Shown here: in pieces, positions 3,823-59,211 of the stretch
How the letters are laid out: every line of letters begins with the position of its first letter
Position numbering within the stretch: position 1 is the first letter of the stretch
Assembly (NCBI GenBank): GCA_038040485.1
Contig: JBBPIE010000006.1
Coordinates: forward strand, 142,435-206,434
Source: Candidatus Onstottus arcticum
GTDB lineage: Bacteria > Acidobacteriota > Blastocatellia > UBA7656
Direction: 5' to 3'
DNA: 64,000 nt
Translations under genes and position numbers: made by a program
Notes under the pieces: generated by a model
What the model was told of the DNA's origin: nothing
What the model saw: only the letters and a program-made list of their open reading frames with translations
Databases searched by the model: none

Positions 3823-4247
3823 TCGAGGTAAGAAATCGCCGCAGTGCCAACTTCAAATTATGCGGACGCTCAACGGTCTCGTCGGCACTGCGGCGAGGGG
3901 GGATCGAAACTAGGGAGCGGTAGGTTCGATTTGGGGCGGGGCGACAGACAACTACAAGCCAATCTCGTATTAGGTCATCGCCGTTTTGAGGGAGCTGTTG
4001 TTACTGATATCAACTCGCATACCACAGCCGGCTGCGCCTGCCTTGAACCTCAACTCTTTGTGAATGCTCGCAATAAGCGGCGTCGATGGGTTAGGTCGGC
4101 TGACTGATTCAGCCAGAATGAAAGAAGCCGTTCAACGGTGTAAGCGATATTGACCGAGCGCTATCAGTGAGATGAACGATCGCGCAAAGAAGCGCGTCAC
4201 CCGATGACAAGGGCTGTCATCGCCGGGTCCCATCACGCGTCACTCCC

Positions 4248-4320
4248 TGGGAGCGCAGGCATCCCGCCTGCTGCTTGGTGGCGTGTGAGAAGAGGCAGGC
4301 AGGGATGCCTGCGCTCCCAG
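4248..4320. repeat. MITE/REP-like palindromic element, family A (termini TGGGAGCGCAGGCATCCC...GGGATGCCTGCGCTCCCA), copy 1
   Basis: A 24-nt left arm (4248-4271) and the right arm (4295-4320) are reverse complements, flanking a 23-nt loop. The element lies 6 nt downstream of the aminotransferase stop (4326-4328) and could act as its terminator hairpin. Confidence 0.65.
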
Positions 4321-4325
4321 AGGAC

Positions 4326-5540
4326 TCAACTCGTTATTGCCCGGCACATTCGCTCGACGCCTTCAGAGATCGCTTCCGGCGACTCCTTCGAGTAAGCCAG
4401 CCTCATCGTGTTTGCTCCGCTGCCGTCAACAAAAAAGGGCTGACCCGGTACGTAAGCAACACCGCCGGCGATGGCGCGGGGAAGAACTTCAGTGGCATCG
4501 ATCCGGTTTGCGAGCTCCAACAGAATGAAGAACCCGCCGATGGGCTTTGTCCACCGCGAGCCCGCCGGCGCGAAGCGCTCCAGCGCTTCGAGCATCGCGC
4601 GGCAGCGGACTTCGTAGAAACGGCGAAGCTCGGGCAGCCGCCGCTCAATCAAGCCCGAGAGAATTGCTTCAGCGACGATCGTCTGATCCAGGACACTCGA
4701 GGAGAGATCGGCCCCTTCCTTGGCTAGCTCGATCTTCTTCGCTATCGGCTCTGGCGCGCGCAGATACGCGGTTCGAATGCCGGGCGCGAGCACTTTGGAG
4801 AAAGTACCCAAATAGACGACTCGCTCCGGCCGAAGCGCCGCAAGCGGAACCAGCCGCGCCCCTTCAGATTCGAAATACAGATCGAAGTAAGCGTCGTCCT
4901 CGATGATCAACAAATCGTGCTCGTCGGCTATCTCGACAAGCTGATGCCGCCGCTCGGTCGCAAGCGTCACCCCCGAAGGGTTCTGAAAATTCGGAATCGT
5001 GTAGATGCACTTGATGCGGCGGCCTTCTCTCGAGACCTGATCGAGCTTCTCGCGGAGGTCGCCGATGACGATGCCGCCGTCATCCTGCCGCACACCGATC
5101 ATCTCAGCTTGCGAGTTGTGCAATGCAATGATTCCGCCGATGTAACTCGGAAGTTCTACTAGCGCTATGTCACCCGGATCGATGATCACCCGCGAGATCA
5201 GGTCGAGACCCTGTTGAGAGCCGCTGGTCATAATGACTTCGGCGGACGAGACATGAGTCAACCCTCGTTCACGCAGAAGTCCGACGACCGCATCAACCAG
5301 GGCGGGCTGGCCCTTGGTCGGCCCATACTGAAGGGCGACGGGTCCTCGCTCGCGGATGACTCGCGAAGCGATCTCGGCAAGCTCCTCGATCGGAAACGTT
5401 TCGGCGCTGGGAGCGCCCGCCGCCAACGAGATCACTTCCTTGTTGCCCAGCAACGCAGTGAGCTTTCGGATCGCGTTCGGACGGATCCGGCGACCCAGCT
5501 CGGAAAGCATCTCGTCGTATTGGATTTCGGTTTTAAGCAT
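4326..5540 (-). CDS. PLP-dependent aminotransferase, class I/II fold (AAT-like / 2-aminoadipate transaminase-like)
   Basis: 404 aa with ATG start. Typical aminotransferase I/II blocks are present (LAAGAPS, NPSG, LIIEDDAYFDL, TFSKVLAPGIRTAYL with the Schiff-base Lys). Confidence 0.85.
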   Translation of the reverse strand: MLKTEIQYDEMLSELGRRIRPNAIRKLTALLGNKEVISLAAGAPSAETFPIEELAEIASRVIRERGPVALQYGPTKGQPALVDAVVGLLRERGLTHVSSAEVIMTSGSQQGLDLISRVIIDPGDIALVELPSYIGGIIALHNSQAEMIGVRQDDGGIVIGDLREKLDQVSREGRRIKCIYTIPNFQNPSGVTLATERRHQLVEIADEHDLLIIEDDAYFDLYFESEGARLVPLAALRPERVVYLGTFSKVLAPGIRTAYLRAPEPIAKKIELAKEGADLSSSVLDQTIVAEAILSGLIERRLPELRRFYEVRCRAMLEALERFAPAGSRWTKPIGGFFILLELANRIDATEVLPRAIAGGVAYVPGQPFFVDGSGANTMRLAYSKESPEAISEGVERMCRAITS

Positions 5541-9062: not shown

Positions 9063-11345
9063 ATGGAAACAGTGATAACGCGAGATACGGATGTTTTGAG
9101 GGAGTACGTTGCCGCGCTCGACGCCCGAGAGCGTGGGTTTTCGCCGTTCGGGAGGCTTGCTGCAACTGTAAAGCTTGCGGCGTTAAGGCGTGAGCTGGAC
9201 GCAGCGCAGATCGACGGCACCGATGAAGATCTCGCCGCGCTGCGCCGCGAGATCGATGAGCGAATCAATCGCAGCTTCGCGCGCCGTTTCCTGGCCAGGC
9301 CGTGGGGTGCGCGGCTGTGTGTGTTCCTGTCGATAGTGCTGGCTCAGCAGCTCGCTTTGGCGTTTGTGTGGCTGCTGGCAAAGCTGTTTGTTCGCTTCGC
9401 ACCGTTGCCCAAGCGGTGGAACCCGGTGCTTCCGCACGAGCAGCCGGCTTTCCTGTGGGCGTTCATCTTCTTCTTTTTCTTCGCAGCGCCGATGACCGCG
9501 CTGTTGATTCTGTTTGGCGGGCGATTCATTCGCGCCTGGCGCAAGACCCTCGCGGCGACGCTCCTTATCTTCGCGACTTCAGCGGCGTTCACCTTTCTGG
9601 TTGTGAGAGGAAAAGAACAAACCAACCCGGTTCGGCATAACACGTCGCTCGAGCAATTCGCGAAAGAGCGCGAGTTGAGCATCGCGAACTACCGCGAATG
9701 GATGGAAGCCAACTGGCTGATGAAGGATGCGAAGCTGAAGCGTGACTACGAAGGCTACTTGCGTAACGGGCCCGGCCGATGGATTACGTCGCGATTCGAC
9801 GCCGGCAACGACGCGGCGTGGGGTGACTCGCTTGAAGTGATGAAGACCTACCTCGACGCGGGCGAAGACGAGAACGGGTTTCGAGAATGGCTGAGGTACT
9901 ATCTCGATCGCAACCGGATCTACTCGGAAGACCGCATCGATCACGAAGTGGGAACGATCACCGGCAGCGCCAGCCAACGCTTTCTTGGGGTGTGGCAGCT
10001 TGAACCGCTATTGAACGAACGCGACCGGCGGCTCTACAGCGGTTACCTTGGTTCGATCAATCACGCGATGTGGAAGTGGGGAATCGCGTCGCTGACCTTG
10101 ATGTCGCTAGCGTTCTTGATTGCTTATCTTACTGAGCCGGTGCTCCGATTGCGGGAACGCGTTTCTGGAAATGCCCGCGGCCGCGCCAGCCGAAAGGCCG
10201 CACTGGATTCCGATCAGCCAGCGACAAGCGACGGGCGACTTCCCGAGCGCCCCGATTCGTTCCCGGAGCTAAGCGAGATAACTTCCATGCCGTTCTTCGA
10301 TGCGCCGTTCAAACTGCTGGCCGGCATCCACCGCTCTTTTGTTCGGCTGGTGGTTCTCACAAGCGTCTTCGTCTTCGCGTTGTGGGCGCTCGTCTACGCG
10401 TTCGATCTTTCCGGCGCGCGGCCGAACCCGCACTCACAAGTCGCACTGATGCGTTCGCACTTGTTGTTTGGCGGCTCGGCCAATGATGCCGTGGCGCGAG
10501 CGAGTGACTCACCGGGACGGGCCTTCGCCGACCACGGACAAAGAACCGGAGACGAGACTGGTTCATCAGCCGGTGGCGGCCGCGAAGCCTTGCGCGGCGC
10601 GCGGCCCGCAAGGATTGCCGAGCTGGAGCAAGCGCTCGACGAGGCGGACTATCAAACCGAAAAACGATTCAAGGAACAATACAAGCTCAACGCCGCCGCG
10701 CGCTCGGATGTGAGCCATCTCAAGAACCTCATTTCGCAGCTTCAGCAGACGACAACAGCCCTGCCCGAACAAATCAGCGAGGTCGGCTCGCGAGCCAACG
10801 CCGCCGAAGCGCGAGCGGGTCAGATCATCAACGAAGCCACCGCCGCCAAAATGACCGCCGAGGGAGTCGCGAAACAGATCACCGCCAAGCTCGGCGAAGT
10901 CGAGAGCCGAACCGCCCGGGCATCCGAACAGATCGGCAAAGTAGAAGACCAGGCTTCGGTGCTCGCGACTCGAACCGAAGCGCTCGAGAGAGAACTCGAC
11001 CGGCGCGCGCGCCAAATCGAAGCGCGAACGGAAGAGCTCGGCGAGCGCACGGCTGGGCTCAAAGAGCGCGAAGAGCGGTTTGATCGCCTGCAACGCGCGG
11101 CGCTCACGGCGATACTCTCAGAGCTGAAAGCAAGCGTCGATGATCTGGAAAGCCGAGTCGGGTCGGGCTTCTATCGCTTCTTCAACAAGAGCGAAGCGCG
11201 CCGCGACGCAGACTCGCTTCGCCAGCGCATCACCGCGCTCGCCGCCGAGCTTCGAGATATGAACACCGAGCAGGCGAAGAAGATGGGCGAACAGCTCGAC
11301 GCGTTGAGCAAGAAGGTCGATGACATCGTGTCGCGCATCAGGTAG
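9063..11345 (+). CDS. hypothetical membrane protein with a long C-terminal coiled-coil
   Basis: 760 aa, ATG start. Several hydrophobic segments (LCVFLSIVLAQQLALAFVWLLAKLFV, FLWAFIFFFFFAAPMTALLILFGG, VVLTSVFVFALWALVYAF). The C-terminal roughly 230 aa has heptad-like Ala/Glu/Arg/Leu coiled-coil repeats. Confidence 0.7.
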   Translation: METVITRDTDVLREYVAALDARERGFSPFGRLAATVKLAALRRELDAAQIDGTDEDLAALRREIDERINRSFARRFLARPWGARLCVFLSIVLAQQLALAFVWLLAKLFVRFAPLPKRWNPVLPHEQPAFLWAFIFFFFFAAPMTALLILFGGRFIRAWRKTLAATLLIFATSAAFTFLVVRGKEQTNPVRHNTSLEQFAKERELSIANYREWMEANWLMKDAKLKRDYEGYLRNGPGRWITSRFDAGNDAAWGDSLEVMKTYLDAGEDENGFREWLRYYLDRNRIYSEDRIDHEVGTITGSASQRFLGVWQLEPLLNERDRRLYSGYLGSINHAMWKWGIASLTLMSLAFLIAYLTEPVLRLRERVSGNARGRASRKAALDSDQPATSDGRLPERPDSFPELSEITSMPFFDAPFKLLAGIHRSFVRLVVLTSVFVFALWALVYAFDLSGARPNPHSQVALMRSHLLFGGSANDAVARASDSPGRAFADHGQRTGDETGSSAGGGREALRGARPARIAELEQALDEADYQTEKRFKEQYKLNAAARSDVSHLKNLISQLQQTTTALPEQISEVGSRANAAEARAGQIINEATAAKMTAEGVAKQITAKLGEVESRTARASEQIGKVEDQASVLATRTEALERELDRRARQIEARTEELGERTAGLKEREERFDRLQRAALTAILSELKASVDDLESRVGSGFYRFFNKSEARRDADSLRQRITALAAELRDMNTEQAKKMGEQLDALSKKVDDIVSRIR

Positions 11346-11366
11346 AGGCGAGGAGCAGGCAACGAC

Positions 11367-11546
11367 AGGGCGAAAGGGCGAGGGGGCGAAGGGCGAGGGG
11401 CGAAGGGCGAAGGGGTGAGGGGCGAAGGGCGAGGGGCGAAGGGCGAGGGGCGAAGGGGCGAAGGGCGAGGGGCGAAGGGCGAGGGGCGAAGGGGCGAGGG
11501 GCGAGGGGCGAAGGGGCGAGGGCGAAGGGGCGAGGGGCGAGGGGCG
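11367..11546 (+). repeat. G-rich tandem heptad repeat (GGGCGAR)n, about 25 units; canonical G-quadruplex motif on the + strand
   Basis: Directly visible: gggcgaa/gggcgag/ggggcgaa units without interruption from 11367 to 11546. It sits between the stop of the 9063-11345 gene and the next gene. ORFs read through it give Gly/Arg- or Pro-rich low-complexity artifacts. Confidence 0.9.
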
Positions 11547-11568
11547 AGTGCTTGGTGGACAGCAATTG

Positions 11569-13272
11569 ATGACGCGGACGGAAGGAGAGCCAGAAACGGA
11601 GACGCGGCGACCCGGCGACGAAGCGCGCTCAGCCGAGGTAGCCTATGAAGGCGCTGTTAACGACGCAGCCGCTGATCGCCCCCTCCCCCCTTCGCCCCCT
11701 CTCCCCGTCGCCCCCTCACCCCCTCGACCTGTCGCGCCAAGCCGCCGGCTCCGCGCTCCTCTTGAGATCACAGCCGCGTTCCTGCTGATCCTCCTCGTGA
11801 TGGGTTGGATCGAGTTCGCCGGCCCTGCAATTCTCGACAACGACGGCTACTATCACATTCGCTGGGCGAAGATGGTCCGCGAAAGCTTTCCTCACTTGCC
11901 GCCTTTCAAAGCGCTGCCGCTGACGACGCTCGATGAGCAACACTACGTAGATCACCACTACCTTTTTCATGTCCTGCTCATCCCCTTCACGTTCGGCGAT
12001 CTACGAGTCGGCGCGAAGCTCGCAGCCGTTGTCTTCTCGAGCCTCGGGATCCTGTCGGTGTTCGCGCTGCTTGTAAGCTACCGCGTGCGATATCGGTGGT
12101 TGTGGCTCGCGCCGATGATCGCAAGCTCTGAACCGTTCCTCTATCGAATGTCGATGACGCGGGCGCCTGCGTTGTCGCTTGCTCTGTTGGGCCTCGGCGC
12201 GTACCTGGTCCTCAAGCGCAAGCCGCTCCTGCTCGCGGTGCTCTCGTTTGTGTTTGTCTGGTCGTACAGCCTGTTCCCGCTGACTATGGCTTTCGCAGTC
12301 GCGCACGCGATTGCGATTTATCTTTCCCAGCGCCGCTTAGAGTTTCGTTCAATCCTCGCAACAGGGATCGGGATCGTCGCGGGCCTGATAATCAATCCTT
12401 ATTTCCCGAAGAACCTCACGTTGTTTCGCGAGCACCTGTTGATGAAGACCGGTGGGACTTACTCGGTAGACGTCGGAGTCGAGTGGTACCCGTACGATAC
12501 GTGGGTGATCATCGGCTCGAGCGCGCTCGCATTCGGGATCTTCTTTGCGGGGCTTCTGGCGTTCGACTATCGAAGCCGCACGCGCGACCCGAAGCCGCTG
12601 TTCTTACTGCTGGTATCGACGATGTTTCTGTTGATGGCTTTCAAGTCGCGGCGCTTTATCGAGTACTGGCCGCCGTTCGCTGTCGCGTTTGCCGCGTTCA
12701 CGATCAGCCCGAAGCTCCAGACGATGAGCTTCTCGTGGATGACTCGCACGCGAGACCGCGCAATCGCGGCACTAGCGGCGGCTACCATCACTGTAGTCGC
12801 GGTTGTGAATGTTTGCTCGGCCGTGCTCCTGGCTCGCGCCGACGTTCGCTCCGAAGCCGACCCGTTCGCTTACAAGGGCGCAAGCGAATGGCTCGCCGCG
12901 AACACGCCTCCGGGTTCGATGGTGTTCAACACGGACTGGGACGACTTTCCGATGCTGTTCTACTACAACCCGAACAACACATACATAGTCGGACTTGACC
13001 CCACGTATCTATACGATCGCGACCGGCAGTTGTGGAAGCTGTACGCGGACATCACGCTCGGCAACGAAGACAACCCCGCCCCGTTGATCAGGGATCGCTT
13101 CGGCGCGGAGTACGTGTTCACAGACAACGAGCACTCGGACTTCATGCAGAATGTAGAAGAAAGCGGCGACTTCGAGAAGGTGTATGAGGATAAGTTCACG
13201 ACGGTGTTGAGGGTCCGCAAGCCTGATGATCCAAGGGCTAATGTGTCGGAAGGACAGGGAACCGCGCGATAG
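11569..13272 (+). CDS. polytopic membrane protein, putative GT-C-fold glycosyltransferase (about 10 TM + periplasmic C-terminal domain)
   Basis: ATG at 11569 (track GTG at 11548). Many TM helices. Loop motif DNDGYYHIRW after TM1 resembles the periplasmic acidic loop of GT-C enzymes. The N-terminal codons (PLPPSPPLPVAPSPP) overlap a C-rich inverted copy of the upstream G-repeat (11677-11729). Confidence 0.55.
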   Translation: MTRTEGEPETETRRPGDEARSAEVAYEGAVNDAAADRPLPPSPPLPVAPSPPRPVAPSRRLRAPLEITAAFLLILLVMGWIEFAGPAILDNDGYYHIRWAKMVRESFPHLPPFKALPLTTLDEQHYVDHHYLFHVLLIPFTFGDLRVGAKLAAVVFSSLGILSVFALLVSYRVRYRWLWLAPMIASSEPFLYRMSMTRAPALSLALLGLGAYLVLKRKPLLLAVLSFVFVWSYSLFPLTMAFAVAHAIAIYLSQRRLEFRSILATGIGIVAGLIINPYFPKNLTLFREHLLMKTGGTYSVDVGVEWYPYDTWVIIGSSALAFGIFFAGLLAFDYRSRTRDPKPLFLLLVSTMFLLMAFKSRRFIEYWPPFAVAFAAFTISPKLQTMSFSWMTRTRDRAIAALAAATITVVAVVNVCSAVLLARADVRSEADPFAYKGASEWLAANTPPGSMVFNTDWDDFPMLFYYNPNNTYIVGLDPTYLYDRDRQLWKLYADITLGNEDNPAPLIRDRFGAEYVFTDNEHSDFMQNVEESGDFEKVYEDKFTTVLRVRKPDDPRANVSEGQGTAR

Positions 13273-14404: not shown

Positions 14405-15253
14405 ATGAACTCACCAACATCAAAGTTCCTCACTGCTGAATGGCGGCACCTTGCGATGCTCAACTTCGAGGTCGATCCGAAGGTAATGCAGCCGCTCGTG
14501 CCCGTAGGGACCGAGTTGGATCAATGGCAGGGCCGGACTTTCATTAGCGTAGTTGGGTTCTTGTTCCTCAACACACGCGTCTTCGGCGTAGCGATCCCCT
14601 GGCATCGCGACTTCGAAGAGGTGAATCTGCGCTTCTATGTAAGAAGGAAGGCGAGCGACGGATGGCGGCGAGGAGTGGTCTTCGTAAAGGAAATCGTGCC
14701 TCGCATTGCGATCGCGCTGACGGCGAGAGTCGTTTACGGAGAGAACTACGTTGCCGTCCCGATGAGTCATCGGATCGAGGGGGATAACGGCTCCGGTGCC
14801 GAGCCGCGAGCCGAATCAGATCCAAGAGCCGTGTTTGAGCCGCGAGCTGAGCCAGATCCAAGAGCCTTGCCAAAGCCGAGAGCCGAGTCAGATCCGAGAA
14901 TCGTGTCTCAGCCGCGAGCCGTGTCGTACTCCTGGCAGTTTCGCGGCCGAGAGAACCGATTGGCGCTAACCGTTGGCGGCGACTCTGATCAAGCACCCGA
15001 GGGAAGTGAGGCGGAGTTCATAACCGAACACTACTGGGGCTACGCTGGACGGCGAGGCGGGCGCACGATGGAATACCGAGTCGAGCACCCTCGCTGGAGG
15101 ATTGCCCGCGCTACCTCAGCCGAACTCGATTGCGACGTAGCCGGACTCTACGGAAGCCAGTTCGTCGAGTCCTTGAAGACGCCTCCGGCCTCAGCGTTTC
15201 TCGCCGCCGGATCGGAAGTGACAGTGTTCCGTGGAAGCGTGCTGCCTTCATGA
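14405..15253 (+). CDS. DUF2071 (YqjF-like) family protein with an internal tandem-repeat insertion
   Basis: ATG start. N-terminus LTAEWRHLAMLNFEVDPKVMQPLVPVGTELDQWQGRTFISVVGFLF...LRFYVRR is the DUF2071 consensus. In-frame repeats AEPRAESDPRAVF/EPRAEPDPRALPK/PRAESDPRIVSQ lie in the middle. Confidence 0.75.
   Translation: MNSPTSKFLTAEWRHLAMLNFEVDPKVMQPLVPVGTELDQWQGRTFISVVGFLFLNTRVFGVAIPWHRDFEEVNLRFYVRRKASDGWRRGVVFVKEIVPRIAIALTARVVYGENYVAVPMSHRIEGDNGSGAEPRAESDPRAVFEPRAEPDPRALPKPRAESDPRIVSQPRAVSYSWQFRGRENRLALTVGGDSDQAPEGSEAEFITEHYWGYAGRRGGRTMEYRVEHPRWRIARATSAELDCDVAGLYGSQFVESLKTPPASAFLAAGSEVTVFRGSVLPS
14801..14923 (+). repeat. 36-39-nt in-frame tandem repeat (about 3.3 copies) inside the DUF2071 gene
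   Basis: gagccgcgagccgaatcagatccaagagccgtgttt / gagccgcgagctgagccagatccaagagccttgccaaag / ccgagagccgagtcagatccgagaatcgtgtctca / gccgcgagccgtg. Confidence 0.75.
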
Positions 15254-15286: not shown

Positions 15287-15347
15287 GTTCGCATAAACCC
15301 TGGAAGGGTGAAGGCATCAAGCCACGGGTGAGTCCGCGAACCCGTGG
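15287..15347. repeat. hairpin repeat unit (GTTCGCATAAACCC ... CCACGGGT-N10-ACCCGTGG), copy 1
   Basis: Stem CCACGGGT/ACCCGTGG (15322-15347) with loop GAGTCCGCGA, preceded by GTTCGCATAAACCC at 15287. Confidence 0.6.
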
Positions 15348-15510
15348 ACATAGGCGGCAACGGGAATCGCTAACCCGCGAAGCGGGTGGCGGCCCTTGGT
15401 TAACGAGCACTGGTGGGTCTCACAACTGAACTCATCGGTTGGTGCCGGTTGGGATTGGAACCCTTCGCGATCCCGCGTACCCGAGGGCCTGACCGTCACC
15501 CTCTTCGAGG

Positions 15511-15562
15511 GTTCGCATACCCCGGTATCGACCGATCCACGGGTTCGCGGACTCACCCGTGG
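15511..15562. repeat. hairpin repeat unit, copy 2 (same stem, loop reverse-complemented)
   Basis: GTTCGCATACCCC at 15511, then CCACGGGTTCGCGGACTCACCCGTGG at 15537-15562, the exact reverse complement of copy 1's hairpin. Confidence 0.6.
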
Positions 15563-15665
15563 CTTTACTCCGGCATCCCGTTCCGGGATTGCCAATCACG
15601 ACATCCACTCGAAGTCTTCCAGGATTTGCCAGTTCGCGACATCGATTGTTTTTGATGGCCGAGAG

Positions 15666-17207
15666 TTAGAGCGTCTTCAAAAACGCGATCAACGCGCGTT
15701 TGTCTTCAGCCGAAAGCTCCAAACCGAACTCGTGGCCCTTCACTGCGCGAGTCTTAACACCCGGGCCCTTCCAGCCGCTCGGCACGTAATCATCCTTGAG
15801 CCGCTGCACATCAAACCACTCCTCAAGCGAAGCCACCGACCCCGAGTGCTCGACCAAGGCGCGATACCAAAGTCCCTTCAACGTGGGCACCTTGTAGTAG
15901 CCGGTTCCTTTCCGCGTCTTCAATGCCAATGACGAGTCAGTCCCGACTCGCATGCCTTTCATTACGTGAAGCCGCGCCGTTAGCGGATCATCTTTCGGCG
16001 GAGTGAACCCGTCAGCCGGAATCAGCATGTTGTTGGTGTACAGCGGAGGCGTGTGGCACGTAGCGCAGCCTTCGCTCTTGAAGACTTGCTCACCGCGTCG
16101 CGCAACGTCATCCATCTTGTGCGGGCTGGGAGGCGATTCGAGCGAGTAGACGAACTTTCCAAGCGCATACAACGCTTCGTCGGGAAACCGCGAAGTCAGC
16201 TTGCGCTGCTGGTCGTTGAAGAACTTGTACGGCCCGATCGAACCGTCGTCCGCGGTGTTCACAAGAATTGCGTATCGGGCGATGTCTTCGGGTCCACGGT
16301 TGGCGTGAGTGCCTGTGTGATCGATGTAGCGGCGATCTTTTATTCCGTTGAGGTCCGCGATCTTGGTGACGTAGTACGGGCTGCCGTTGAACCGCGCGAA
16401 CGTCCCGTTGATAGGGAAGCCGTCCACCGCGCCAATCTCCTGGCGGCTCATCGTCTTGAAGCCCGCGTGAATGTCGTCCTTGACCCAGGGCGTGCCGTAC
16501 GATGCGTACTCGGCCTCGTTGATCGTGATCTTGCGGGCTTCGAGGTCGCGTCCAAACCCCTCAATCAGAATACCGAGCCCGCCGCCGGTGAAGGTTCTGG
16601 TTGCTGCCCCGAGCAGCACGCTGTGGTCGTCCATCAGCCGAGTGTGACAGCCCGCGCAGTCCGCGAGGCCGACTTTCAGCTTGCCGTCTTTAGTGACGAC
16701 ATAACGCATTTGCAGGATCACTCCGTCCTTAGTCACTTCACCGTCGGCTTTCTTGATTGCGTCGCGGTCGCCGATGAACTTGAAGATGCCGGGATCGTCG
16801 GTTCGAGTGACGGGGAAGTCGAGTCCTTCGAAGACGCGGCGGCCCGCTTCGATCCAGTCGCGTTCGGTCTTGAGCGTCGCAGGTTCGATCATCGGCTGAG
16901 CGCCCTGCTTGATCATCCACTCGCGATAGCCTTTGGGCTCGAAGTCGGGATGGTAGACCGGGTATGTGCGCAGATTGTCGACCGGCGCGGCGTAGTACTC
17001 TTCTTCGCTGTAGAAGTTTGGCGTCGCGTTCAGCCCGGCCACCGGGGTAGCCCACGTAGCGAGTTGCTTCGTGTCCCAGATCTTCGGAACGACGATCTTC
17101 CCGGAAGTCGCGGCCGGTTTCGTCTGAGCGATCGAGCCCGGCATCATAAGAAACAGAGTGCCGGCAGCCCAAAGAAGCGCCAGTAGGAAACGATCGAGTC
17201 TTCGCAT
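15666..17207 (-). CDS. di-heme c-type cytochrome (cytochrome-c peroxidase/MauG/DUF1111-like oxidoreductase), secreted
   Basis: 513 aa, ATG start, signal peptide MRRLDRFLLALLWAAGTLFLMMPGSIAQT. Two CxxCH heme-binding motifs (CAGCH and CATCH) about 200 aa apart. Confidence 0.8.
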   Translation of the reverse strand: MRRLDRFLLALLWAAGTLFLMMPGSIAQTKPAATSGKIVVPKIWDTKQLATWATPVAGLNATPNFYSEEEYYAAPVDNLRTYPVYHPDFEPKGYREWMIKQGAQPMIEPATLKTERDWIEAGRRVFEGLDFPVTRTDDPGIFKFIGDRDAIKKADGEVTKDGVILQMRYVVTKDGKLKVGLADCAGCHTRLMDDHSVLLGAATRTFTGGGLGILIEGFGRDLEARKITINEAEYASYGTPWVKDDIHAGFKTMSRQEIGAVDGFPINGTFARFNGSPYYVTKIADLNGIKDRRYIDHTGTHANRGPEDIARYAILVNTADDGSIGPYKFFNDQQRKLTSRFPDEALYALGKFVYSLESPPSPHKMDDVARRGEQVFKSEGCATCHTPPLYTNNMLIPADGFTPPKDDPLTARLHVMKGMRVGTDSSLALKTRKGTGYYKVPTLKGLWYRALVEHSGSVASLEEWFDVQRLKDDYVPSGWKGPGVKTRAVKGHEFGLELSAEDKRALIAFLKTL

Positions 17208-17245
17208 CTTTCACCTCGCAATCAAGTCGGACATATCATTCGCCG

Positions 17246-17342
17246 GGAGCGCGGAAGTAGCATAGACTTTAGTCTGTGTCTGCGACCCACGAAAAGAGCT
17301 CCACGGACACAGACTAAAGTCTATGCTACTTCTGCGCTCCCA
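17246..17342. repeat. 97-nt near-perfect hairpin (36-bp arms, 25-nt loop) with family-A-like termini GGGAGCGCGG...CTGCGCTCCC
   Basis: Left arm gggagcgcggaagtagcatagactttagtctgtgtc (17246-17281) and right arm gacacagactaaagtctatgctacttctgcgctccc (17307-17342) are reverse complements with 1 mismatch. It lies between the cytochrome gene start (17207) and tRNA-Ser. Confidence 0.8.
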
Positions 17343-17432
17343 GGAGACTCTGAACTCAAACTAAACGCCATCGATTGGGCCTCAGCTTGATAGCCATCGG
17401 AAGCGTCCGGTATACTCCGACGAGTCTTTGAT

Positions 17433-17525
17433 GGAGAAGTCGCCTAGTGGCTGAGGGCGGCGGTTTGCTAAACCGCTATAGGCTGTAAAGGCCTATCGAG
17501 GGTTCGAATCCCTCCTTCTCCGCCA
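17433..17525 (+). tRNA. tRNA-Ser (anticodon GCU), CCA encoded
   Basis: Acceptor GGAGAAG/CTTCTCC, D-arm GCC..GGC, anticodon stem GCGGT/ACCGC with loop TTGCTAA, long variable arm, T-arm GAGGG TTCGAAT CCCTC, discriminator G, CCA. Confidence 0.9.
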
Positions 17526-17540
17526 TTTTCATCAAAGGGA

Positions 17541-17565
17541 GAAGCCGGCCACGCGCCGGCTTTTT
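17541..17565 (+). terminator. rho-independent terminator after tRNA-Ser
   Basis: GCCGGC-cacgc-GCCGGC stem-loop followed by TTTTT. Confidence 0.7.
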
Positions 17566-17701
17566 CCAATTCAGCGGAGAGATTAGTCCGCGCCTCGTTC
17601 TCTTGGCAACCCGAAGCGGACGCTCTTCCTCCCCGCGAGTAGTTGGGATTGAGGGAAGGACTAACCGCAGAGACGTCGAGACGCAGAGCCGGCGCCGAGG
17701 A

Positions 17702-18472
17702 TCAAAGCGCAAGTTCAACGACGACCGGCGCGTGGTCTGACGGACGCTCCCAGCTTCGAGGTGCTTTGTCGATTACGACTGAGGTAGCTTGCGCGGCCAA
17801 CGGGTTCGATACCCAAACGTGATCGATCCTCAGCCCGAGGTTTCGGCGAAAAGCTCCAGCGCGATAGTCCCACCACGAGAACTCTTTGTCGGAAGCGTTG
17901 TGAAGGCGAAACGCGTCGACAAAGCCCCACTGCTTGACGTGCTCGAGCGCGTTGCGCTCGCCCTCGCTGCACAAGATCTTCCCACGCCAGAGGTTTGGAT
18001 CGTGAATGTCGCGGTCTTCGGGAGCTACGTTGAAGTCGCCGCACAGCAGAACACGCCCGGCAGTGTCGCAATGCGAATCGAAGAACTCTCGCAGGCGGTG
18101 CATCCAGTCGAGCTTGAAGCTGTACTTTTCAGTGCCAACAGCTTGTCCGTTCGGGATGTAGACGTTGACGACTCGAACTCCGCCTACGGTCGCGGCCAGC
18201 AAGCGAGATTGAGCGCCGGGCTCGGCGTCAGTATAGCCGCGCTGTGTGTCTTCGCACTTCGCCCGCGAAACGATGGCGACTCCGTTATAGGTAGCCTGGC
18301 CGAACGACTCGGAGAGGTAGCCGATTTCGCCGAACGCTTCGACGGGAAACTTCTCGTCGATGCATTTGGTCTCTTGCATGCAGAGCACATCGGGTTTTGC
18401 GGCTTCCAGCCACTTCAACACGAGCGGCAATCTCGCGGCGATTGAATTGACGTTCCAGGTGGCTAGCTTCAC
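17702..18472 (-). CDS. xth: exodeoxyribonuclease III (AP endonuclease, Xth family)
   Basis: 256 aa MKLATWNVNSIAARLP...CMQETK...LCGDFNVAPEDRDIH...RIDHVWVS: full-length ExoIII/EEP signature motifs. GTG start. Confidence 0.9.
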   Translation of the reverse strand: MKLATWNVNSIAARLPLVLKWLEAAKPDVLCMQETKCIDEKFPVEAFGEIGYLSESFGQATYNGVAIVSRAKCEDTQRGYTDAEPGAQSRLLAATVGGVRVVNVYIPNGQAVGTEKYSFKLDWMHRLREFFDSHCDTAGRVLLCGDFNVAPEDRDIHDPNLWRGKILCSEGERNALEHVKQWGFVDAFRLHNASDKEFSWWDYRAGAFRRNLGLRIDHVWVSNPLAAQATSVVIDKAPRSWERPSDHAPVVVELAL

Positions 18473-20620: not shown

Positions 20621-22480
20621 ATGAGCGACAAACAGATCGAGCGTGCGAAGCTAATCGGTTTTTTTGCGGGCGTTGCCGCTCTCAGCTTAATCCTGCGGAT
20701 CTCCTACTCAGGCCATCTCTTTCAAGATGATGGGTTGTGGTTCACGGCTGCCGAGCAAATTCTGCGCGGCAAGGCGCTCTACTCTGAAATCTATTTCGAC
20801 AAGCCGCCGGCCCTCCCGCTCGTTTATGCGGCGCTGTTCAAGCTCTTTGGCGCCCACATCATAATCATCCGGCTGTTTACCGTATGCTACTCAGTCGCGA
20901 TCTCAGCCGTGCTCTATTTCTTCGGGTCGTGGCTGTACGACCGCCGCACGGGCATGTTGGCGGCCGGGATGTTCGCGTTTTTCAGCACAATTTCTGTGAA
21001 CAACCACGTGCAAGGACTCAACACTGATTTCCTGATGCTGCTGCCTTACACGCTTGGCGCGTATTTGCTTATTCGCGCATGCTTCGAGCAGCGCGGCTTG
21101 TTGGCGCTGGCTGGAGGCGCGCTGGCCGGTATCGCCATCCAGACCAATCCCAAAGGCTTCTTCGACCTGATGTTCTTCGTTTTGATTTTGCTCATGGGTT
21201 GGGCGTGGGGACGTCTCAACAAAGACTCTCAGTTCGTTGATTTCAAATTGAGTTTTGCGTCTGCGACGCGATTGCTCGCGCTGTCGGCCGCCGGCGTTGT
21301 TGCGGGCGCGATTCCGTTCGTCGCTTATGTTGCGATCACCCATTCGCTTTCTGACTACTGGTTGTCGGTCTGGGTCTGGGGCACCCGCTACGCAAGCTAT
21401 TCGGCGACGCCGCCTGCCCTGGGTCGAGGGACATGGCTCTCAGCGACCTACCTGGTGCGCAATAACACATTGTTGTTTGGGCTCGCGTTTGTCATAGCAG
21501 TCACGGTCCGGCAAGGGATTCATTATCGAAAGGCTCAGCGAGGGCAAGCGAGTAGTGAGGAAGACCCTGAGAGCGCGGGCATCCTGCCCGCCGACCTCGG
21601 GAGCGAGCGCTTGTTGGGGCAAGAGATGCGGGCAGGATGCCCGCGCTCCCAGGATTTCAGATCAGATGTGACGATTCTTTTATGGCTTGCTGTGTCGTAT
21701 GCAGGAGTGATGGCAGGCGGCCGATTCTACTCCAACTACTTCTTTCAAATCCTGCCGAGTCTTTGCCTGATCGGCGCTCGGGGACTGATCGGCATCACCT
21801 CCGCTTTGAAGGCGAAACCGCCAGGGTTGCGGCGCGCCACAACCATCTTGATAGCGATTTGTTTTGTTATCACGGCCGTTCGTTTTCACACGCGCACTGC
21901 TGTTCTAGCGGCCGGCTGGATGCGCGGAACGAGCGGTGGAACAAACGGCGGTTGGTATCACAACGAACTCAATCGCGAGGAGCAATTGGTCGCTGCGTTG
22001 GTGAGAGACCTGCCTGATGGCGCGGATCGGATCGAGCGCGCGGGCGTGGAGGCGTTGCGGGCCGGCCGGCCGCCGGGCACGGTCGAGGGACCTGCGGACT
22101 ATCTTTTTGTTTGGGGATCGCGAGACGAAATCTATTACTGGTCAGGCCTGCTTCCAGCGTCGCGGTACTTAAGCGCGCAGCCGCTCACCGGCGTGCCTGC
22201 GGATACCCAGCACGTGGATGACAAGAGCCGTTCTATTCTCAGCGAAGAGGGGATGGCGGCCGCGCGAGCTCAATTGGTCCGCGACCTCGATCGGGCTCGC
22301 CCGAAATACATCGTCGACGAAATTGGTTTTTTCAATGCCGCTCTATCGATCCAGTCATACCCTGAACTCAAAGCGTTCATGAGAAACTACAGAGCCATCG
22401 GTGCGGCGGGCCGCTTTCTGATTTATCGCTGGAAGGAAGAAGATGATTCAAGCGGGGCGCAAGGCGCACCAGGTAATTAA
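20621..22480 (+). CDS. glycosyltransferase family 39 / ArnT-like (PMT_2) GT-C membrane glycosyltransferase; carries an in-frame family-A repeat insertion
   Basis: ATG start. N-terminal motif YSEIYFDKPPALPLVYAALFKLFG is the GT39/GT83 (Y/F)xxKPP loop. Multiple TM helices. Large C-terminal soluble region. Confidence 0.8.
   Translation: MSDKQIERAKLIGFFAGVAALSLILRISYSGHLFQDDGLWFTAAEQILRGKALYSEIYFDKPPALPLVYAALFKLFGAHIIIIRLFTVCYSVAISAVLYFFGSWLYDRRTGMLAAGMFAFFSTISVNNHVQGLNTDFLMLLPYTLGAYLLIRACFEQRGLLALAGGALAGIAIQTNPKGFFDLMFFVLILLMGWAWGRLNKDSQFVDFKLSFASATRLLALSAAGVVAGAIPFVAYVAITHSLSDYWLSVWVWGTRYASYSATPPALGRGTWLSATYLVRNNTLLFGLAFVIAVTVRQGIHYRKAQRGQASSEEDPESAGILPADLGSERLLGQEMRAGCPRSQDFRSDVTILLWLAVSYAGVMAGGRFYSNYFFQILPSLCLIGARGLIGITSALKAKPPGLRRATTILIAICFVITAVRFHTRTAVLAAGWMRGTSGGTNGGWYHNELNREEQLVAALVRDLPDGADRIERAGVEALRAGRPPGTVEGPADYLFVWGSRDEIYYWSGLLPASRYLSAQPLTGVPADTQHVDDKSRSILSEEGMAAARAQLVRDLDRARPKYIVDEIGFFNAALSIQSYPELKAFMRNYRAIGAAGRFLIYRWKEEDDSSGAQGAPGN
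21568..21653. repeat. family-A MITE/REP-like element, copy 3, inserted in-frame inside the GT39 CDS
   Basis: Left arm tgagagcgcgggcatcctgcccgc (21568-21591) and right arm gcgggcaggatgcccgcgctcccagga (21628-21653) are reverse complements. Translated in frame as ...ESAGILPADLGSERLLGQEMRAGCPRSQ... Confidence 0.65.
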
Positions 22481-23876: not shown

Positions 23877-23903
23877 CAGCAGGCAGGGATGCCTGCGCTC
23901 CCA
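23877..23903. repeat. solo family-A terminal arm (GCAGCAGGCAGGGATGCCTGCGCTCCCA) 12 nt after the GH stop
   Basis: Identical to the right arm of copy 1 (4295-4320). No partner arm nearby. Confidence 0.5.
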
Positions 23904-24252
23904 CGGCATTCATTTCGCCATTGTCGAAGGAATCGGAGGGGTGCCGGATGAATCCGCGATGCTGTCCGGTGGCGGCGCGGACTTGCCACCGGCTAAATTC
24001 CGTCGCCACTCTGTGGCGGAATGGTCAGCAACTCACTAACACCACAAAACCGAAGACTCGCGGTGGAACGAATCCATAAGGCTCAGCGCGTCTCCCCTTG
24101 TCACCTTCGGCGAACGTCTGCAAAAATGCATCGAGGCCGCTGGAACGCTTTGCCCGCGCGTTGCGTTCAAGCGTTTGGCCCGTCAGCCTCAAACAGGCAA
24201 GCTCAACTGGTCGAGCCCCGAACACTCCCGATAGCACCGAAGTCAAAGCCGG

Positions 24253-28714: not shown

Positions 28715-28870
28715 CTAGTGTCCTAAAGTTGTGTTGCTCGTTCTGTCGGCGAATCGAGCAACCGCCAAGACGCCAAGAGCGCCAAGATTCTCAACGGATT
28801 CTTGGTTTAACCTTGGCGTTCTTTGCGTCTTGGCGGTTTTCCAATCGAGCAACACACTAATAGGACACTA
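28715..28870. repeat. about 155-nt nested inverted-repeat element upstream of the moaA promoter
   Basis: Outer arms ctagtgtcctaaagttgtgttgctcg / cgagcaacacactaataggacactac. Inner imperfect arms ccgccaagacgccaagagcgccaag / cttggcgttctttgcgtcttggcgg. AATCGAGCAAC occurs as a direct repeat. Confidence 0.6.
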
Positions 28871-28887
28871 CCCAAAAACTCGGTGCT

Positions 28888-28946
28888 CGTGTCGGTAGCT
28901 CGACCGTCAGGGAGAGCTCTCCCTCACGGTCGAGCTAGCTGACACG
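28888..28946. repeat. family-B 56-59-nt palindrome (TGTC(G/A)GTAGCTCGACCGTCAGGGAGAGCTCTCCCT(C/A)ACGGTCGAGCTA..GACA), copy 1
   Basis: Near-perfect self-complementary sequence between the mobB-like stop (28959) and the nested IR. Confidence 0.7.
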
Positions 28947-28958
28947 GGTTGACCCACC

Positions 28959-53174: not shown

Positions 53175-53230
53175 GTGTCAGTAGCTCGACCGTCAGGGAG
53201 AGCTCTCCCTAACGGTCGAGCTACTGACAC
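53175..53230. repeat. family-B 56-nt palindrome, copy 2
   Basis: tgtgtcagtagctcgaccgtcagggagagctctccctaacggtcgagctactgacaca is near-identical to 28888-28946. Confidence 0.75.
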
Positions 53231-53295
53231 AAGTTTCAAAGTGAACCACCACCGTAGTCTGAGTGTCCTTGGTCTTTGGTGAAGACCATGCAGAG

Positions 53296-54153: not shown

Positions 54154-54157
54154 ATTT

Positions 54158-54376
54158 CCTGGGAGCGCAGGCGTCTCGCCAGCAGGTCTCACTACATCAA
54201 TCACTGGGCGAGATTCAGTTTCTCGCCGCAGTCTCACAACTATCAATCACGGCAGGCGAGACGCAGCTTGCCGTCCGCGGTCTCACAACTATCAATCACT
54301 GCAGGCGAGACGCAGCTTGCCGCCCGCCGGTCTCACAACTATCAATCACGGCAGGCGAGACGCCTGCGCTCCCAGG
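54158..54376. repeat. family-A MITE-like element, copy 5 (219 nt): termini CCTGGGAGCGCAGGCGTCTCGCC / GGCGAGACGCCTGCGCTCCCAGG flanking about 3.5 tandem 50-nt internal repeats
   Basis: It fills the whole gap between the M28 peptidase stop (54379) and the amidohydrolase start (54153). Internal units tctcacaactatcaatcac(g/t)gcaggcgagacgcagcttgccg(t/c)ccgc(g/c)g. Confidence 0.7.
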
Positions 54377-58735: not shown

Positions 58736-58923
58736 CGGGCTCTCGGCGGTTCCGCTTCCGCATAGCAAGGCGGCACGTCCGCTTCTACCGCGGCTCCTGA
58801 TTCAAACGTCGATGAGGTATTTGCAGGTCTAGCCTGCGTCTCCACTGTGCGGTGTCTTTCGGGAACGATATGCTATGCCGCGCAGGTGAATGCGTCAACC
58901 TGAGGCATACGGCCTCGCGCGCA

Positions 58924-59211
58924 CCGCGTAGCGGCCTCCTATCGATAGTTCGCGCGCTGGACCAATGTCGTGGACCGCGTAGCGGTGTCCTATCGATAGC
59001 ACGGTCATCAAGCGTCAACGCCTGGCCGCATAGCGGCTACCTGACCTTCGCGCTGACCGACCGGCATGCGTATGGATCCAGGTACCCGCTACGCGGCCCG
59101 CTCGCCCCGCGCACGTTCGGTCTATCGATAGGTAGCCGCTACGCGGCCCGCTCGCCCCGCGCACGTTCTGACTATCGACAGGTAGCCGCTACGCGGCCGC
59201 TTATCTCGACA
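58924..59211. repeat. composite repeat array: inverted/direct copies of CGCGTAGCGG-N5-CTATCGATAG plus 2.6 tandem 50-nt units, between the divergent acylase and radC genes
   Basis: 58924-58948 and 58975-58999 in one orientation. 59081-59130, 59131-59180 and 59181-59211 in the other. Contains the perfect 10-bp palindrome CTATCGATAG three times. Confidence 0.75.

Follow-up and report, generated by a model that had tools for sequence, protein, structure and literature searches.

The element analysed here lies between a cytochrome c gene and a tRNA-Ser gene that diverge from each other. Throughout the text, the window refers to the whole 64-kb stretch of DNA that was analysed. An earlier reading of this DNA from its letters (the sequence-only reading) had placed the element between the cytochrome start (17207) and the tRNA-Ser gene (17433), and this location was confirmed. 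The features of the locus are listed below; REP designates the conserved repeat unit and family A a set of palindromic elements that also occurs elsewhere in the window.

15666 to 17207, minus strand: cytochrome c gene (513 aa), start codon 37 nt from the hairpin
17245 to 17256, plus strand: left outer stem GGGAGCGCGGAA, located beyond the conserved repeat; its first 10 nt are the family-A terminus GGGAGCGCRG
17257 to 17279, plus strand: left REP unit GTAGCATAGACTTTAGTCTGTGT, with GTAG tag, imperfect 7-bp stem and TTTA loop; exact family consensus
17280 to 17306, no strand: spacer CTGCGACCCACGAAAAGAGCTCCACGG (27 nt), of a spacer family common to the copies in loci L002 and L082
17307 to 17329, minus strand: right REP unit, an exact but inverted copy of the 23-mer with GTAG outward ('HH' arrangement)
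17330 to 17341, plus strand: right outer stem TTCTGCGCTCCC, with AGG next, as in family A
17387 to 17416, plus strand: sigma-70-like promoter TTGATA-18-TATACT for tRNA-Ser, 45 nt past the hairpin and conserved in all orthologous loci
17433 to 17525, plus strand: tRNA-Ser(GCT) gene

The arms of the inverted repeat (17245-17280 and 17306-17341) are 36 nt each and 97% complementary, and enclose a loop of 25 nt, giving an element of 97 nt overall. The near-perfect 97-nt hairpin with a 36-bp stem, one mismatch and a 25-nt loop that had been described from the letters was therefore recovered; its coordinates (17246-17342) were one base too high, the actual span being 17245-17341. The single stem mismatch is G17253 opposite T17333 (G:T) in the outer stem, and the loop measures 25 nt because C17280 and G17306 of the 27-nt spacer pair with each other. 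The predicted RNA fold of the hairpin reached -77.3 kcal/mol compared to -31.0 ± 3.5 kcal/mol for dinucleotide shuffles (z = -13.2), and none of the 200 shuffles folded as well. A search of Rfam 15 at the gathering score returned only the two tRNAs and left the hairpin unmatched. A relaxed scan of 17150-17450 gave only sub-threshold models of eukaryotic miRNA precursors, which are generic to long hairpins. No terminator-like site was detected in 16900-17900 and no T-tract follows the hairpin stem. The promoter scan found no minus-strand promoter for the cytochrome gene, and the only good promoter was that of tRNA-Ser.

A Logan short-read contig of 1.7 kb (L104, from run SRR28961256) is identical to window positions 15561-17278 and includes the junction GGGAGCGCGGAAGTAGC. 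As this contig repeats the junction of the family-A-type end with the interior, the junction is no assembly artefact. L104 was the only contig matching the cytochrome protein of the window exactly, and it stops one base before the left REP is complete, as could happen if the repeat had broken the assembly of that sample.

The core 20-mer of the hairpin was searched in one representative genome per species. Among the matches listed, it was present in more than 103 blocks of 8 kb from at least about 31 assemblies, most of which are MAGs assigned to Blastocatellia, Pyrinomonadaceae or "Acidobacteriota". The sequence-only reading had allowed for a core without any other copies; more than 100 exist elsewhere. 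Alignment of 211 copies defined a sharply bounded REP unit of 23 nt, GT[A/G]GCATAGACTTTAGTCTGTGT. Most of positions 0-21 carry 1.4-1.96 bits of information and the A/G position 2 carries 1.06 bits, and the value falls to about 0 outside the 23-nt unit, save for a weak GAA immediately upstream. Positions 0-3 are occupied by G (98%), T (96%), A/G (75/22%) and G (95%), which corresponds to the classic GT[A/G]G tag. In the DNA fold, the unit forms an imperfect stem of 7 bp (C ATAGAC / GTCTGT G) with one T.G pair and a TTTA loop. The complementary strand has a C.A mismatch in place of the T.G pair, so that the two strands are unequal, as expected for strand-specific recognition. The stem covaries: among 49 distinct tagged variants, 9 double-change cells were counted compared to 2.5 ± 1.4 after shuffling (0 of 500 shuffles as high), with GTAGAACGGAC..GTCCGTTT and GTAGTGTGGAC..GTCCACAC as examples.

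The units are predominantly arranged as inverted doublets. We counted 79 doublets with GTAG outside, 3 with GTAG inside, 6 tandem pairs and 44 single units, so that 79 of the 88 adjacent pairs carry their tags on the outside. The doublet spacers are mainly 10-49 nt long and fall into families that span genomes: at least three acidobacterial assemblies have a 30-31-nt type in common, and doublets from Cytophagales have an AT-rich 30-nt spacer type of their own. The window element is overall 86-89% identical to the copies in L002 and L082, with which its spacer clusters. The window copy appears to be young, both of its units being identical to the consensus. Relative genomes contain numerous blocks of 8 kb with the repeat (at least 18 in CAZJQQ01, at least 12 in JBBPIH01, and at least 8 each in DATAOU01 and JBGQGO01); for the genome of the window itself, one doublet was seen within 64 kb. 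Target-site duplications of a consistent length were not found at the doublets, and the longest flush direct repeats were about as long as in a shuffled-partner control, with the exception of a handful of 5-6-nt flush direct repeats. Neither the REP sequence nor the family-A sequence was found verbatim in the searchable literature.

The identical 23-mer was also found in three low-GC MAGs of Cytophagales/Bernardetiaceae (loci L001, L010, L017, L020, L045, L062, L069, L070, L076, L079, L083, L084 and L096), with a GC content of 33-39% compared to 52-58% for the acidobacterial loci. Two other core-bearing MAGs are titled 'uncultured Clostridia bacterium', namely CAZJQQ01 (L002-L091) and CAZOOE01 (L014, L055, L097 and L098). 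A contig of CAZJQQ01 (L013) is syntenic with the window at 72-75% nucleotide identity and contains the cytochrome gene, tRNA-Ser, Exo_endo_phos and tRNA-Arg. CAZJQQ01 has a GC content of 57% and the same repeat families as the Blastocatellia MAGs. Judged by synteny, GC content and repeat families, its Clostridia label looks wrong. CAZOOE01 has the title and the GTAG repeat in common with CAZJQQ01.

A partner enzyme was identified next to the repeat. In L043, two inverted REPs bracket an ORF of 231 aa which matches the NCBIfam family REP_Tyr_transpos (E = 1.7e-18, 66.9 bits, cut-off 80), and is referred to as RAYT (REP-associated tyrosine transposase, an HUH/Y1 enzyme). Its homologues match the same model (NF047646) with E-values of 1e-14 to 5e-22 and scores of 54-78.5 bits, all 10 being below the equivalog cut-off of 80, and the match to Pfam Y1_Tnp is weak. 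In the PDB, the only match was TnpA_REP of E. coli (4ER8), with E = 1.5e-4 across 57 residues. This alignment spans the helix of the catalytic tyrosine, YIxxNPVKxG, and the HUH motif HVH is present in the RAYT. Protein length is about 225-231 aa, of which about 85 aa form an N-terminal extension. At E <= 1e-10 the family comprises 2360 proteins, and JGI has named several of these RayT. A tblastn search detected homologues in three more loci that had been selected on the repeat (L018, L067 and L080), in which only the REP located about 35-55 nt beyond the 3' end of the RAYT gene was seen.

As an independent test, six RAYT homologues (L105-L110; 56-74% identical) were chosen on protein similarity alone. 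Inverted REPs flank the RAYT gene in all six. The exact 23-mer lies beside RAYT in L105 and L109; L106, L107, L108 and L110, in which RAYT identity is 56-61%, have lineage-specific REP variants with compensatory stem changes, for example GTAGCGTAGAC..GTCTGCGA and GTGGCGTGGAC..GTCCGCGC. The stem pair A5-T20 is replaced by G5-C20 in L110, and ATAGAC/GTCTGT is replaced by GTGGAC/GTCCGC in L108. Taken over all loci, a REP adjoins the RAYT gene in 10 out of 10, with inverted flanking on both sides visible in seven (L043 and L105-L110), and a family HMM run over all collected DNA detected RAYTs in those 10 REP-adjoined loci only. The sequence comparison thus indicates that REP and RAYT co-vary between lineages. 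No RAYT was found in the 64-kb window using tblastn and the family HMM on six-frame ORFs, and none was found in the collected Cytophagales blocks. One homologue, P0052 (L107, from run SRR28961265, a sister of SRR28961256), lies between REPs of another variant, GTGGCGCAGACTTTAGTCTGTGG.

Scanning metagenomes for the tRNA-Ser leader yielded 11 loci, which were compared together with L013. As the sequence-only reading had proposed to check, the presence of the element beside tRNA-Ser varies among relatives: the site is empty in L116 and decayed in the L013 clade, and an intact doublet in the cytochrome/tRNA-Ser spacer is found in the window only. Among the relatives whose spacer is complete, L116 is the closest, its cytochrome CDS being 79.5% identical. 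Its spacer of about 50 nt contains neither a REP nor family-A ends and holds a small unrelated palindrome. L117 shows 85% identity in the downstream gene, and its sequence stops 10 nt upstream of the -35 box. In L013, L113, L114 and L118-L121 (72-75% identity), a degraded doublet is present whose right unit abuts the -35 box, and whose right junction is different from that in the window. The units in this clade have up to 5 or more substitutions each as well as a 1-nt deletion, and these changes are non-compensatory; the L013 copy is the best preserved of its clade, with one substitution over both units. L112 and L115 have a different upstream gene and lack the repeat. The window copy and the L013-clade copies have similar left junctions (gcc(c)ggg..aa followed by GTAGC) but different spacers and right junctions, and the identity of the window copy to copies elsewhere (86-89%) exceeds that to the L013 copy (74%). 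The element is polymorphic among relatives and decays when old. The combination of presence/absence variation and non-compensatory decay is the opposite of what is expected for a locus-specific structured RNA. Besides a fresh insertion in the window, the copy in the more distant clade also permits another history, in which an ancient insertion disappeared from L116 and was renewed in the window.

The ends of the hairpin, GGGAGCGCGG (17245-17254) and its inverse CTGCGCTCCC (17332-17341), match family A, and the right end is followed by AGG. The sequence-only reading had noticed that the outer ends echo family A and that the interior is unrelated to the family-A copies, and both observations hold: the outer 10 nt read GGGAGCGCRG, and the interior 24-mer is found within the 64-kb window in the two hairpin arms only. 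GGGAGCGCRG occurs 8 times in the window compared to 0.87 times expected (0 of 100 shuffles reached 8), and every occurrence marks the end of a palindromic element: six form three inverted pairs, and those at 21641 and 23893 are single. The pattern of the family-A termini, CCTGGGAGCGC[A/G]G ... C[T/C]GCGCTCCCAGG, is thus present on the hairpin, whereas the inner arms of family A (GCAGGCATCCCTGCCTGC, a small hairpin per arm) are absent and the interior consists of the GTAG REP. As the ends lie outside the conserved 23-nt unit, they are flank and not REP.

Palindromic flanks are not restricted to the window copy. Copy-specific palindromic flanks of at least 5 nt were found on 12 of 80 doublets (about 15%) and on essentially none in a shifted control; among those doublets, the 12-nt flank in the window is the only one with family-A sequence. 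Deletion of 17257-17329 leaves GGGAGCGCGGAA joined to TTCTGCGCTCCC, a near-perfect palindrome of 24 nt, which places the doublet at the exact centre of symmetry. In L011 (394-501), the frame CCTGGGAGCGCA...TGCGCTCCCAGG surrounds a third palindrome type, and the breakpoint there is at most 1-2 nt away from that in the window. This third type (GTTCGTAGTTCGGCCTTCAGGCGG...) itself hosts a GTAG doublet in L002 (about 5134-5219).

Other family-A palindromes are located in the window at 4246-4320, 21566-21653, 23879-23904 and 54157-54376 and are composed of CCTGGGAGCGCAGGCATCCCTGCCTGC, a spacer and the inverse, each arm consisting of a tag and a small hairpin (GCAGGCA-TCCC-TGCCTGC). A long ORF with a PMT_2 domain (20621-22480) encloses the copy at 21566-21653, and the element at 23879-23904 is a half copy. 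In the element at 54157-54376, the spacer is filled by three tandem units of 49-50 nt (CCGCAGTCTCACAACTATCAATCACGGCAGGCGAGACGCAGCTTGCCGT-like; 54226-54373), the last of which runs into the right family-A arm. Family-A palindromes are also present in the syntenic MAG CAZJQQ01 (L015, L019 and L044).

Based on these results we identify the hairpin, with a probability of about 0.85, as a REPIN, that is a GTAG-REP 'HH dimer' of two inverted 23-nt units with tags outward and a 27-nt spacer. It represents a GTAG-REP family of Blastocatellia-type Acidobacteriota that had not been described before, and is placed in a palindromic frame of the family-A type. Judging from the relatives, the window copy probably belongs to an active REPIN population in its genome. 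By analogy with E. coli TnpA_REP and the IS200/IS605 enzymes, the RAYT would recognise the small REP hairpin together with the 5' GTAG 'foot' on single-stranded DNA, would cleave beside the REP hairpin, and would move or copy the doublet in trans without target-site duplication. In the window, the doublet would have landed mid-way in a short pre-existing palindrome with family-A-type ends, and landing at the palindrome centre would have prolonged the stem to 36 bp. The REPIN model alone does not account for the 10-nt family-A ends. In its position upstream of the tRNA-Ser promoter and 37 nt from the cytochrome start codon the element is most likely a passenger, and a side effect of the -77 kcal/mol hairpin on the 5' leader of the cytochrome gene is possible. 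Of the suggestion that the hairpin is a MITE variant, the small non-autonomous mobile repeat is retained, but not the variant of family A, as the element belongs to a wider REP family of its own with its own RAYT. A classical MITE with terminal inverted repeats (TIR) and target-site duplication was rejected, as no consistent direct duplication was found at the flanks.

The family-A ends could also be explained by a chimeric family-A element, in which GGGAGCGC...GCGCTCCC are the functional termini, the GTAG doublet is captured cargo and the 97 nt move as one. The match of the 10-nt ends and the trailing AGG to family A agrees with such a chimera, as does the frame that surrounds a different palindrome in L011 with nearly the same breakpoint. 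We consider it unlikely, however, since family-A ends are found on none of the other 80-87 doublets (the count depends on the script) in 0.87 Mb, the family-A inner arms (AGGCATCCCTGCCTGC) are missing, and the conserved unit that is linked to the transposase is the 23-mer and not the frame. A functional structured RNA or regulatory hairpin under selection at this site, acting as a stabiliser of the cytochrome 5' leader or as an element of the tRNA-Ser promoter, is less probable still. The same sequence is present at more than 100 unrelated sites, it is missing from the closest complete relative (L116), and Rfam gives no match at the gathering score; these findings outweigh the very stable fold, the site in a divergent promoter region and the doublet that a second clade also has in its cytochrome/tRNA-Ser spacer. 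The structured RNA proposed in the sequence-only reading would have been kept at tRNA-Ser with compensatory changes, whereas the copies in the other clade gather non-compensatory substitutions and a 1-nt deletion.

Each arm also contains a palindrome, AGACTnnAGTCT, and the visible sub-palindrome in each unit raises the idea of an operator pair, in which a dimeric regulator could bind two sites about 47 bp apart. Copies at more than 100 unrelated loci, whatever the neighbouring genes, a stem that covaries as a hairpin and not as a fixed recognition sequence, and the association with RAYT genes and not with a regulator make this very improbable. Hardly credible is the remnant of an attachment site, or an integration scar, at tRNA-Ser, for which the nearby tRNA gene had been the argument: the hairpin is located upstream of the tRNA promoter and not at the tRNA 3' end, this 3' end occurs only once in 64 kb, and L013 has the same downstream order tRNA-Ser / Exo_endo_phos / tRNA-Arg. 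The same low probability is given to an intrinsic terminator, as both a T-tract and a terminator-like site are absent, and a terminator role makes no sense between flanking genes that point away from each other.

Within the REPIN interpretation, two linked readings are put forward tentatively, and we regard them as possible but not probable. One is structure-directed nesting, in which doublets prefer the apex of existing palindromes. The 12-nt family-A frame CCTGGGAGCGCR...YGCGCTCCCAGG would then be a reusable landing pad for different hairpin modules, with the GTAG doublet as interior in the window, a GTTCGTAGTTCGG-type palindrome as interior in L011, and a GTAG doublet inside the third palindrome type in L002. 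An empty family-A frame (GGAGCGC, 0-25 nt, GCGCTCC) was not found in 0.87 Mb, and a recombinant chimera is a candidate beside the landing pad. The other is transfer between phyla: the identical REP in Acidobacteriota and Cytophagales/Bernardetiaceae may indicate that the REP-RAYT system has moved from one phylum to another.

The system resembles the REPINs of Pseudomonas fluorescens SBW25 (Bertels and Rainey, 2011; PMC3116915), which likewise consist of two inverted REPs with a short spacer that form a hairpin of about 100 nt. These REPINs are also present as many dispersed copies in addition to singlets, with the doublet as the replicating unit (compare the spacer families found here), and the SBW25 RAYT is likewise flanked by the same REPs. 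The two systems differ in REP sequence and in host phylum (here Acidobacteriota, class Blastocatellia). In addition, the RAYT described here is longer (about 225-231 aa, extended N-terminally by about 85 aa) and scores under the NCBIfam equivalog cut-off, and its 23-mer also occurs in low-GC Cytophagales MAGs. The GTAG REP 'HH dimers' described by Di Nocera et al. (2013; PMC3733652) share the 5' GT[A/G]G tag, a stem of 5-13 bp and a short loop with the units found here. The tags-outside arrangement is dominant in those dimers as well, with spacers of 20-100 bp that are often conserved. Dimers within unrelated palindromes have been reported for GTAG-15 of A. variabilis, GTAG-23 of T. roseum and CGTC-1 of H. 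neapolitanus (PMC3733652). In that survey, GTAG repeats were reported from Proteobacteria, Cyanobacteria, Chloroflexi and the PVC superphylum, and not from Acidobacteria or Bacteroidetes (PMC3733652).

With respect to the enzyme, the E. coli REP/BIME system with TnpA_REP (4ER8) provides an HUH/Y1 enzyme that recognises a REP hairpin and GTAG foot on single-stranded DNA. The acidobacterial RAYT, which is known from its sequence alone, aligns with 4ER8 at the YIxxNPVKxG helix and shows only distant sequence similarity to it. Counterparts may also be found in subclasses 2.4 and 2.7 of TnpA_Y1 class 2 (Quentin et al., 2018; PMC6006769), whose motifs NHVH, WQ and YIxNNP-like resemble NHVH, WQ and YIExNP of the RAYT, and whose N-terminus is variable and longer, as in the RAYT described here. 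Both subclasses are associated with canonical GT[AG]G REPs and have a patchy distribution over several phyla (PMC6006769). The RAYT appears to resemble these subclasses by inspection of the motifs, not by the profiles of the authors. Palindrome-associated elements derived from IS200/IS605 and classical MITEs are likewise small, non-coding and hairpin-forming, and are mobilised in trans. In contrast to MITEs, the doublet has no terminal inverted repeats bounded by target-site duplications, and in contrast to IS200/IS605 its partner is a REP-flanked RAYT-type gene and not an IS whose left and right ends are distinct. Literature linking RAYTs to Blastocatellia was not found in the searchable literature.

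The window contains further repeats. A second family of GTAG-tagged palindromes is present at 28886-28947 and 53175-53233, with the sequence GTGTC(A/G)GTAGCTCGACCGTCAGGGAGAG|CTCTCCCT.ACGGTCGAGCTAC and tags on both feet. Beyond these two window copies no collected locus contains it, and it could represent a further kind of REP that has a RAYT of its own. A G-rich array at 11338-11562 consists of about 30 units of 7-8 nt (GGGCGAA/GGGGCGA) with a local GC content of 63%, and a C-rich stretch that is inverse-complementary to this array follows about 280 nt downstream (11681-11730). Three tandem units of 36 nt (14801-14908) are located inside a DUF2071 ORF (14405-15253), and tandem and inverted units of 50 nt are found at 58916-59200. 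In addition, a 43-nt inverted repeat (86%) has its arms at 15306-15348 and 15536-15578, separated by 187 nt, and one of 30 nt (90%) at 28760-28838 encloses a 19-nt loop.

For annotation, the hairpin can be assigned to a defined element class and is removed from the candidates for a novel structured RNA, an attachment site or a variant of family A. The identification also provides a usable signature, inverted doublets of GT[A/G]GCATAGACTTTAGTCTGTGT beside divergent RAYT genes. In Pseudomonas and enterobacteria, REPIN-RAYT systems are reported to be largely inherited vertically; movement of REP-RAYT systems between phyla, if true, would be contrary to this pattern, and is raised here as a side question together with the nesting of hairpins by structure-directed targeting. 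The finding extends REPIN-RAYT systems to Blastocatellia/Pyrinomonadaceae, abundant soil Acidobacteria which are known almost only from MAGs, and repeats of the REPIN type probably fragment the MAG assemblies of this group.
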